From Methanotrichaceae archaeon (GTDB lineage Archaea > Halobacteriota > Methanosarcinia > Methanotrichales > Methanotrichaceae): 64,000 nucleotides of DNA. The notes under the pieces were generated by a model. That model saw only the letters and a list, made by a program, of their open reading frames with translations. It did no database searches and was not told the origin of the DNA. Made by a program: the position numbers and the translations under genes. Shown here piece by piece: positions 42,321 to 43,936 of this stretch (the first letter of the stretch is position 1; every line of letters begins with the position of its first letter). The stretch lies in NCBI GenBank assembly GCA_963803145.1, contig CAWDLW010000008.1, positions 448,001 to 512,000 on the forward strand, given 5' to 3'.

Positions 42321-43856
42321 TTTTCCCATGAAAAACCTTCCTCAATTAAAAGAAATGGTGTGCTATCCACCCCCTACCGAATGTCTATTCTTCAAGTGAT
42401 AAAAGGCGTCTACGATAGCAGCCACTCCATCCTTTAATCGCTCATTTTTGGATAGATAGAGGAGGTCCCTTTTGACTGGTTTTGATGCAGCTGTAGTGCA
42501 GTTGTTCTCTTGATATAGCTCTTGATTAATCAACAGATGATAAATTATTGTGATTAATTTCCGTGCTAAAGCAACGACCGCTACATTGTAGCTCTTTCTG
42601 GCCGACAATCTATGGAAGTACCTTGAGAGCTTGTTCTTGTTATTTCTCATCTTAGCTATCACTTGAGCTATCTCGACAAGAATAGTTCTTAGACTCTTGG
42701 ACCCCTGTTTCGTAATACCACATTGCTTCTTTTTCCCTGCAGATTCGTGTAGTCCAGGAACCAGTCCACACCATTTGGCGATTTGTTCTGGGGTTTGGAA
42801 ATCGCGATAGTCACCGATTTCTGCCAAGATGGTCGACCCTGATCTAAAACTTATTCCTGGAATTGACATAACTATTGCCAGATCTTTAGCGCTTTTCTGA
42901 AATCTGCTAAGCACTTCAAGACTTGTTTTATCTATCTTCTTTTTCAGAAGATCAAGGAGCTCTAGATTATCCTTAACAAGCATTCTCGAAGTATCATCAA
43001 GACCGTTTGCAAGAGCCGCTTTGATGACGTCTCGCTTTTTCTTGATCTTCTTTGAAGTGATTCTGTCCAGGATCGAGTCTGCATCCTTGCCTTCAACCAG
43101 GCCATCCAAGATAATCCTGCCTGATTTACCAAAGATGTCTGAAATACAAGAACTCAGCTTTATGCCGCAAAGTGCTAGATACTTATGAACTCGATTCCTA
43201 AGCTGAGTTTGAGTCTTTATATATCCTGATCTGGCACGGGTCATCATTCTGAGGGCTCTATCCTCATTGGAAAAGACTCTTGATCTCTTGATTTTGCCAT
43301 CCAAGCAGTTACCTGCAATCCTCTTAGCGTCATGAGAATCCGACTTATCCCCTACAAGTCCTTTGACCATCCATGGATTTGCTACAATTGTATCAATCGA
43401 TGGACTCAGGCAATCGTAGACTGGAAACCAGTAAACACCTGTAGCTTCAAATGCTACTTGCTCGCAATTATTGGCTATGAGCCAATTCCTGAATCTCTCT
43501 AGCTCCGAACGAGTCGTGCCAAACTGTTCCTGGATTTCAGTCCCATCTGCATCTTCGATCGTGGCTACTATGAGATCTTTATGGACATCTGCTCCGCAAA
43601 CTCTATTTCTTCGTTTGCCCATATATGTCGCTATCCTGATATGGGCAGATGATTAAGATTAATCCCTTATAGGGGGTAATTTCCCATGCGCGTTCAACGA
43701 CGCAGCCCCGTATTCACGGGATTATTGGCCAGTTTTAGCCGCGAGATCATGATCTCAAAAATAAAGCTGCCTTCACTGCCCATATCAGACTAATCATAGT
43801 TGGCCATGAATGTGAGGTTTTTCATCCGCCACGTATGACCCTTAAGGATCATGGGC
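42321..43856 (-). mobile_element. Intact IS110-family element (recombinase 42363-43622) inserted in repeat A
   Basis: GADVHK, FEATGVYW, KSD..DA and GLVPG.HESAGK motifs; sub-terminal IRs ATGAAAAACCT (42328) and AGGTTTTTCAT (43815); about 235 bp of upstream non-coding end. Confidence 0.93.
43630..43800 (-). ncRNA. Putative IS110 bridge RNA
   Basis: 13-bp IR CTGATATGGGCAG/CTGCCCATATCAG (43636-43648, 43776-43788) encloses hairpins and segments matching the target (AGTTTTAGCC) and donor (TTTCCCATG) junctions. Confidence 0.6.
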
Positions 43857-43936
43857 GTTTTAGCCTCAGAAGAAGTGTTGGCTTTGAATTATATAAGCAG
43901 GCCCAAACGAGAAAGTGATAGTTATTCTTGATTACT

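Follow-up and report, generated by a model that had tools for sequence, protein, structure and literature searches.

An archaeal IS110-family insertion sequence with bridge-RNA-like guide segments that match the dispersed repeat it occupies

In a 64,000-nucleotide stretch of DNA from a Methanotrichaceae archaeon (assembly GCA_963803145.1, contig CAWDLW010000008.1, positions 448,001 to 512,000; called the window below), an insertion sequence (IS) of the IS110 family interrupts one copy of a dispersed intergenic repeat, repeat A. Upstream of its recombinase gene the element carries a conserved bridge-RNA-like scaffold with three guide segments, and among its relatives these segments covary with the left flank, the right flank and the right end of the element. 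We consider it very probable that the element is intact and that it chooses its site through an RNA encoded in its upstream 235-nt left end. An original prediction, read from the letters of the window, had described such an IS110 programmed against repeat A, and the inverted repeat, loop segments, hairpin and copy of the element's own end that it named were all found where it had placed them (Table 1); its AAAATAA lies inside AAAAATAAAG, and on the transposase strand the target loop does precede the donor segment. Left and right refer below to the recombinase strand, the minus strand of the window, unless the top strand is named.

The source genome was searched as a 4.13-Mb, 51-contig assembly, in which BLAST found nine copies of the element at 97.4-100% identity. 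Read on the top strand, eight of the nine left flanks are repeat A, entered each time at an identical base and in one orientation and ending ...CC(A/G)(T/C)TAG directly before TTTCCCATG, which supports the predicted targeting of repeat A, and seven of the eight available right flanks are repeat A as well (GTTTTAGCCCCAGAAG..., or GTTTTAGCCTCAGAAG in the window copy), giving the occupied-site consensus ...GCTAG(T/G)AAAACC(A/G)(T/C)TAG-TTTCCCATG ... CATGGGCG-TTTTAGCCCCAGAAG. The sequence past repeat A differs from copy to copy, and the copies are therefore taken to be separate insertions. The ninth copy, on contig C25, occupies the non-repeat site GGGCTA-AAA-TAAAGCG (its top-strand right flank has GTTTTAGCCC alone in common with repeat A), and this site matches the 3′ guide of the element together with nine of the ten nucleotides of the copy's own 5′ guide variant. 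The 5′ guide occurs in two sub-variants, as CUUUAUUUUU in the copies on C8 (the window's contig), C34 and C25 and as CUUUAAUUUU in the six remaining copies; both atypical sites, that of the window copy, with A as the first right-flank base, and that of C25, are held by the CUUUAUUUUU variant, with a fit of nine in ten.

The scaffold begins and ends with the arms CUGAUAUGGGCAG and CUGCCCAUAUCAG of the 13-bp closing stem, as read on the recombinase strand. Inside it follow a short stem GGCAG / CUGGCC, then CUUUAUUUUU, the hairpin GAGAUCAUGAUCUC and GC-GGCUAAAACU, and after a linker the hairpin (C/A)UGCGUC-N3-GAACGCG, CAUGGGAAA and a further stem region, with the target loop on the 5′ side of the donor segment. 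The 5′ segment would pair with the top strand and agrees with the window copy's own site over seven exact nucleotides. The 3′ segment would pair with the bottom strand, and nine of its nucleotides are the same as the left junction in all eight copies that have this flank, the copy on C9 having been omitted because it reaches a contig end there; the stretch GGCUAAAAC spells the left target, the core and the first base past the core. When the non-coding end of the window copy alone was shuffled 5000 times with its dinucleotides preserved, 33 shuffles reached the 9-nt match to the left flank, 60 the 9-nt match to the element's own end, and none all three matches jointly.

The relatives of the recombinase, which were found in 56 of 105 genomes of Methanotrichaceae, provide what amounts to a natural retargeting experiment, i.e., one conserved scaffold with at least 43 different 3′ guides and flanks that match them. 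The upstream regions of ten relatives at 62-100% protein identity were aligned, and all keep the scaffold, with loop segments that vary in step with the flanks: relatives at 82-83% identity have the flanks CCCTAAAC and ...AAA-GGATGGGG with the guides CCCUAAAC and CAUCCUUU, and relatives at 62-66% identity have the flank GATTGAAAC with the guide GAUUGAAAC. Homologues that sit in other sequences, the case in which the original prediction could have failed for want of any guide change, thus carry guide segments that follow their flanks, an outcome that favours it. The 3′ guide matches the left flank over at least 8 nt at 16 of 22 loci, versus 0.25% of 400 cross-class pairs; the 5′ guide, which tracks the right flank, matches the reverse complement of core plus right flank over at least 7 nt at 8 of 18, versus 0.4% of 258 cross-class pairs. 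In a larger set of 79 distinct elements, the 3′ guide agrees with the left flank over at least 8 nt in 42/77, versus 0.87% of 4135 cross pairings, and 26 of 43 guide classes have at least one matching member, although related elements are not independent samples and all of these cross-pair comparisons overstate the significance somewhat. In 39 of 67 elements the donor guide is the same as the right end (a hand count from the table of elements), and it tracks seven right-end variants (ATGGG, ATAGG, ATGTG, ATGCG, ATGGT, ATGCT and ATGCC).

Table 1. Positions in the window of the element, its gene, its guide segments and its target flanks
Feature	Position	Strand	Remark
Whole IS110-family element	42322..43857	-	1536 bp with one copy of the common AAA/TTT core
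Recombinase gene, 419 aa, DEDD RuvC-like + Tnp domain	42363..43622	-	Pfam
Bridge-RNA-like scaffold, 153 nt	43636..43788	-	closed by 13-bp stem 43776-43788 / 43636-43648
5′ side of target loop, CUUUAUUUUU (RTG-like, right target guide); AAAAATAAAG on top strand	43757..43766	-	antisense to core + right flank
Distal hairpin of target loop, GAGAUCAUGAUCUC; GAGATCATGATCTC on top strand	43743..43756	-	helix 3, 88.6% paired
3′ side of target loop, GGCUAAAACU (LTG-like, left target guide); AGTTTTAGCC on top strand	43731..43740	-	sense of left flank + core
Near-invariant hairpin (C/A)UGCGUC-N3-GAACGCG	43689..43706	-	directly 5′ of donor guide
Left-donor guide (LDG-like), CAUGGGAAA; TTTCCCATG on top strand	43680..43688	-	equals right end + core; identical to 42322-42330
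Left-end hairpin, CAUGAUCC-UUAA-GGGUCAUA	43834..43853	-	fold
Left copy of 11-bp inverted repeat, ATGAAAAACCT	43815..43825	-	31 nt inside left end
Right-end partner of 11-bp inverted repeat, AGGTTTTTCAT on recombinase strand	42328..42338	-	
Core copy at right-end junction	42322..42324	-	AAA on recombinase strand
Proximal part of repeat A, ends ...GCTAGTAAAACCATTA+T	42246..42321	+	right target flank (RT) on recombinase strand
Core TTT (43858-43860) + distal repeat-A end TAGCCTCAGAAGAAG	43858..43875	+	left target flank (LT) on recombinase strand

The structure of the scaffold was drawn by hand from 22 related sequences, in which 87.5% of the cells pair, versus 29-48% when the partners are slid, the drawing having been made from the same sequences on which the pairing was scored. 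Relative to shuffles, 43623-43856 folded in the RNA sense scores z = -3.89. The variable columns of the alignment are the guide segments and the stems are conserved; five of the six pairs of helix 6 are invariant in 22/22 sequences, and the near-invariant hairpin directly before the donor guide is probably a protein-binding part of the scaffold. Support from covariation for the helices is modest. A covariance model, R1, built from the 22 sequences finds exactly nine places in the source genome at 136-138 bits, among them the window copy (C8:491636-491788, 136 bits). No Rfam family matches the element in evalue mode (42000-44200), it not being established whether Rfam 15 includes bridge-RNA families.

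The protein is assigned to the IS110-family recombinases by its Pfam matches, PF01548 (E = 1e-18) and PF02371 (E = 1.9e-23), which both exceed the curated cut-offs, and by its alignment to IS621 (8wt6 chain A), in which the catalytic D, E, DxxD and ES(A/G) serine are retained and the motifs GADVHK, FEATG, KSDSHDA and HESAG match up with those of IS621. Its similarity to the IS621 protein is weak (E = 4.7e-12), the alignment to IS5075/IS4321 (IS1111 group) is confined to residues 251-371, and the two are about equally remote by sequence. The closest named relatives are plasmid-borne Bacillota genes annotated "IS110 family transposase", at 33-37% identity. A second, decayed IS110-family gene with two in-frame stops lies at ~7590-8381 on the plus strand (G000:C8:455590-456381) and is 33% identical to recombinase residues 122-386.

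Removal of the element leaves ...GCTAGTAAAACCATTA(T)+TTT+TAGCCTCAGAAG, the conserved distal end of repeat A, as had been predicted; the boundaries given at the time shift by one base, the start at 42322 being set by the alignment of the other eight copies. At base 42321 seven copies have G, the window copy has T and the C25 copy has A, and since it varies in this way the base is part of the target. Owing to the core that element and target have in common, the ends carry an uncertainty of 1-3 nt. TTT is the only sequence common to both junctions in all copies, as ...TTAG-TTT-CCCATG on the left and CATGGGCG-TTT-TAGCC on the right of the top strand, where TTTT or a shorter core had been considered before; in the relatives L021-L027 only AA is common to both, and the core, AAA on the recombinase strand, may therefore be two bases long. 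On that strand the target parts are ...GGGGCTA on the left, the core AAA, and CTAATGG... on the right, and the donor parts are ...TTTTTCATGGG for the left donor (the right end of the element) and CGCCCATGATCC... for the right donor (its left end). The non-coding ends are ~235 nt on the left (43623-43857), upstream of the gene, and 41 nt on the right (42322-42362), downstream of it. The first arm of the left-end hairpin and the right end also make up an inverted repeat of 7 bp (TCATGGG / CCCATGA), and the two arms of the hairpin vary jointly in relatives (TGAGCCC/GGGCTCA and CATGAGCC/GGCTCATG); in fact the 7-bp repeat, the 11-bp repeat and the terminal hairpin all covary there. The hairpin and the 11-bp repeat may contribute to recognition of the donor or to a junction transcript.

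The proposed mechanism would run as follows. The 13-bp closing stem would enclose a target-binding internal loop, and the recombinase, with its DEDD and Ser residues, would exchange strands at the short common core AAA, possibly AA. In this way GGGGCUA-AAA-CUAAUGG of repeat A would be joined to CAUGGG-AAA-CGCCCAUG of a circle, without target duplication, the circle junction reading …CATGGG-AAA-CGCCCATG…. The right side of the donor may be read via the terminal DNA hairpin and the inverted repeat rather than via an RNA guide.

Several observations weigh against this account. Contamination of the assembly is estimated at 6.8%, and neither an empty orthologous site nor a circle junction was observed. 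In seven of the eight repeat-A copies an A or U of the guide stands opposite the first right-flank C, which is a mismatch, and the 7-nt right-flank match TTATTTT of the window copy was reached in 686 of the 5000 shuffles (14%), which alone is not significant. Among the 77 elements, 35 have an exact left-flank match shorter than 8 nt, including one-mismatch sites, flanks ended by contig edges and decayed copies. The stems vary little, and the six pairs with changes on both sides are a number that was reached in 93 of 500 shuffles. No complement of the right donor side and the core emerged by eye, on the 5′ side of the donor region, in the 3′ tail, in the hairpin loop or in the closing stem, or from a mutual-information scan of 69 elements, which gave clade-level correlations alone and no diagonal of complementarity. 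No promoter was identified for the RNA-like segment, and we infer from the sequence that the RNA-encoding strand is transcribed, that the recombinase binds the RNA, that the intermediate is circular and where exactly cleavage falls; recognition of the right donor would use some other feature, the candidates being the left-end hairpin and the 11-bp inverted repeat. An A/G difference between L021 and L022, which mirrors a T/C difference at their left ends, was considered as a right-donor guide and rejected, since the neighbouring positions do not pair.

The alternative that the element is a dead relic, its guide matches recording past activity alone, takes some support from the two of nine copies broken by other insertion sequences (L109, G000:C25:147828-150595, and L110, G000:C15:16110-18729; one of the interrupting elements is IS1-like, PF03400, and one has helix-turn-helix and DDE_3 domains) and from a copy divergence of up to 2.6%. 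It is nevertheless unlikely, as a full open recombinase frame is kept in the other seven copies and the scaffold in all nine, the two guide variants each stand at sites that fit them, and fifteen perfect 12-nt targets remain empty. Alternatively, the site could be chosen by the protein or by DNA structure, through a pairing of the left-end hairpin and the inverted repeats with the hairpins of repeat A, with the loop matches idle or acting as DNA. The conserved inverted repeats at the element ends, the compensatory changes in the hairpins of repeat A and the missing RNA guide for the right donor side would fit this, but among recombinases of 62-83% identity with nearly identical scaffolds the differing insertion sites track the loop segments alone, and the mechanism of the family is experimentally established for IS621 and ISEc21/ISEc11 (PMC11208160, PMC11208158, PMC11187229), which makes this alternative improbable. 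A spread of the copies through duplication, or through homologous recombination among the abundant repeat-A copies (at least 39 ends empty and 8 occupied) that took a resident element with it, the matches being captured pieces of the repeat, can be set aside as most improbable, because the sequence past the repeat differs at every copy, the C25 copy lies outside any repeat at a site that matches both guide segments, relatives with unrelated targets carry matches at the same two loop positions, and capture leaves the antisense right-flank segment and the own-end segment unexplained.

Repeat A recurs in the window (families D2/D9/D13) at 36586-36676, 39248-39338, 41729-41837, 44624-44714, 49026-49116, 52661-52869 and 54677-54766, always in one direction and interspersed with small toxin-antitoxin operons of the minus strand, and a loose search found at least 39 uninterrupted distal ends elsewhere in the genome, on at least 14 contigs; a shorter tandem form is also present. 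Its alignment consensus spans ~120 nt or more and ends ...GGGGTTAGGGGCAGCCCGCGCGGCGAxTGAGCGCGCTAGTAAAACCxTTAGTTTTAGCCCCAGAAG, and the target sequence across the insertion point is GGGGCTAAAACTAATGG. Several GC-rich hairpins occur in it, one with the compensatory variants CGCGC/GCGCG versus CGTCC/GGACG, and beside it stand small toxin-antitoxin gene pairs of PIN, MazE-like and AF2212-like kinds. The repeat had been thought to delimit cassettes, by analogy with integron attC sites; targeting of attC by the IS1111-attC group was reportedly described by Post and Hall in 2009. This analogy was not established and the integron reading was rejected: of 13 genome-wide matches to the tyrosine recombinase family PF00589 none lies in the window and the closest on its contig is ~370 kb off, the two GTTAG-like ends are direct and not inverted, and the repeat is spread over those 14 or more contigs. 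In gathering mode no Rfam family matches the 20-kb repeat region. Since the window has no integrase and Rfam gives no match, repeat A is read as a dispersed, structured intergenic repeat comparable to the bacterial repetitive extragenic palindromic (REP) elements, and the integron analogy is unsupported.

The empty ends of repeat A fall into three variants, TAGTTTTAGCC (18), TAGTGTTAGCC (16) and TAGTATTAGCC (14), and all eight occupied ends belong to TAGTTTTAGCC, the one that the guide spells, i.e., within one genome the guide-spelled variant alone is occupied. If occupancy were independent of the variant the probability of this would be ~0.002 ((26/56)^8, by hand arithmetic), although the variant base may fall within the exchanged core, which weakens the inference. 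For annotation, repeat A and related repeats can be regarded as abundant, stable landing sites in these genomes.

The element has several traits in common with IS621, namely a recombinase with DEDD and Ser residues and the same two Pfam domains, an RNA encoded in a long left end upstream of the gene with the target loop 5′ of the donor loop, target guides that each end at the core and so overlap there, and scarless insertion at a short core in a dispersed host repeat (REP for IS621). Its site-specific insertion, with a short common core and no target duplication past it, is that of the IS110 family, the long non-coding region lies upstream as in the narrow IS110 group, and the end appears on sequence grounds to be of the bridge/seek-RNA kind, with a structured non-coding region whose loop segments match both target strands and covary. 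In the donor loop, the left-donor guide is clear and covarying; in contrast to IS621, the right-donor guide was not found. Further differences are the core (AAA or AA here, CT in IS621), the archaeal host, and the order of the target guides, which is reversed relative to IS621 and ISEc21 for the window copy and for the whole 79-element set alike. In the narrow IS110 group (IS621, ISEc21), the bottom-strand guide stands 5′ of the top-strand guide (PMC11208160, PMC11187229), and Siddiquee et al. likewise give a bottom-strand-first order in an IS110-type element and the reverse in IS1111-type elements (PMC11187229). The order found here is that of the IS1111 type (ISEc11, ISKpn4, ISPa11), where the complement of the top strand comes before that of the bottom strand (PMC11187229).

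Other likenesses to the IS1111 type are the inverted repeats near the ends and the homing of its members to repeated host or mobile sequences (REP, attC, Tn21 ends). Unlike here, the non-coding region of that type is downstream of the gene, and its subterminal repeats are of 11-13 bp with 7- and 3-bp extensions, whereas here 7-bp repeats stand at the tips and the left copy of the 11-bp repeat lies 31 nt inside. ISPpu9 and ISPpu10 of Pseudomonas putida, REP-targeting IS110 elements, resemble the element in having many copies, each in one conserved intergenic host repeat, and differ in being bacterial; for ISPpu10 the structure of the repeat was reportedly also proposed to contribute to recognition.

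In several relatives the 3′ guide extends 1-2 bases past the core and there fits the donor and not the target (L022, for instance, has the guide UGCGG-AA-AC, a target that goes on with TG and a left end that opens with AC), and the donor guide often extends 1-2 bases into the right target (L018, L020, L088). By analogy, these extensions recall the handshake bases of IS621, which follow the top-strand guides there, whereas the partner-matching extensions here would be on the bottom-strand guides, i.e., on the other pair; this is a hint that strands are exchanged in another order than in IS621, and the donor-matching extension of the 3′ guide suggests that the bottom strand may go first. The combination of an upstream RNA, as in IS110, with the guide order of IS1111 bears on the relationship of the two groups and on which strand is exchanged first.

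In a sample of 151 genomes of the class, R1 finds the scaffold in 49, with 40/74 in the family of the source genome and 8/67 in a second family, all of the latter in one genus (g21; 8 of 18 sampled genomes). At four loci of the nearest named relatives (Paenibacillus, B. thuringiensis, Halorubrum, Alicyclobacillus), it gave nothing meaningful (best 9.8 bits). The g21 genomes (G152, G121, G166, G172, G177, G110, G146 and G128; loci L069-L078) have a diverged scaffold of 39-58 bits in up to 16 copies per genome, with the right-end variants ATGCT and ATGCC, both of which their donor guides match. Tentatively, and with less than even confidence, the elements of Methanotrichaceae and of this one genus of a neighbouring family might be seen as a distinct archaeal lineage of bridge recombinases, characterized by an upstream RNA, IS1111-type guide order, bottom-strand extensions, DNA-based recognition of the right donor, many retargetings and a branch that homes to CRISPR arrays. 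Published work already covers bridge and seek RNAs, the targeting of REP and attC, and the existence of several hundred IS110 recombinases in archaea; the upstream RNA combined with reversed guide order and a missing right-donor guide was not found described, although supplementary tables may hold similar cases. Literature searches likewise gave no report on IS110 elements of Methanosaeta/Methanothrix, although supplementary tables may list archaeal members. The recombinases of methanogenic archaea are a source for engineering not yet explored for bridge recombination.

The relatives in CRISPR arrays, all at 62-66% protein identity, are L036 (G076:C12:106500-118000), L037 (G074:C1:2282500-2289500), L038 (G034:C1:2744000-2751500), L010, L011 and L013-L015. 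Their host arrays have 37-nt repeats and spacers of ~36 nt, and the elements always lie exactly between the 3′ end of a repeat (...GGATTGAAAC) and a spacer, in one orientation and with at most four per array. The 3′ guide GAUUGAAAC equals the last 9 nt of the CRISPR repeat, and the 5′ guide needs little beyond GUUU, which fits variable spacers. No report of IS110 homing to CRISPR repeats was found in the literature searches, although such targets may be listed in supplementary tables. This branch raises the question of whether the arrays serve as safe harbours or are disabled by the insertions.

A further relative, L032 (G088:C56), has the 5′ guide CUUCGUG and is inserted in a repeat of CACGAAGGCACAAAGG-like units, which resembles window family D5 (41609-41657, 48394-48442), a second intergenic repeat beside repeat A. 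The window also contains tandem repeats of 30 nt and 21 nt (53015-53164 and 55003-55105) and a block of ~1.3 kb that occurs twice, with 87-90% identity (37905-39212 versus 55796-57263), which together make up families D3, D6, D7, D11 and D18.

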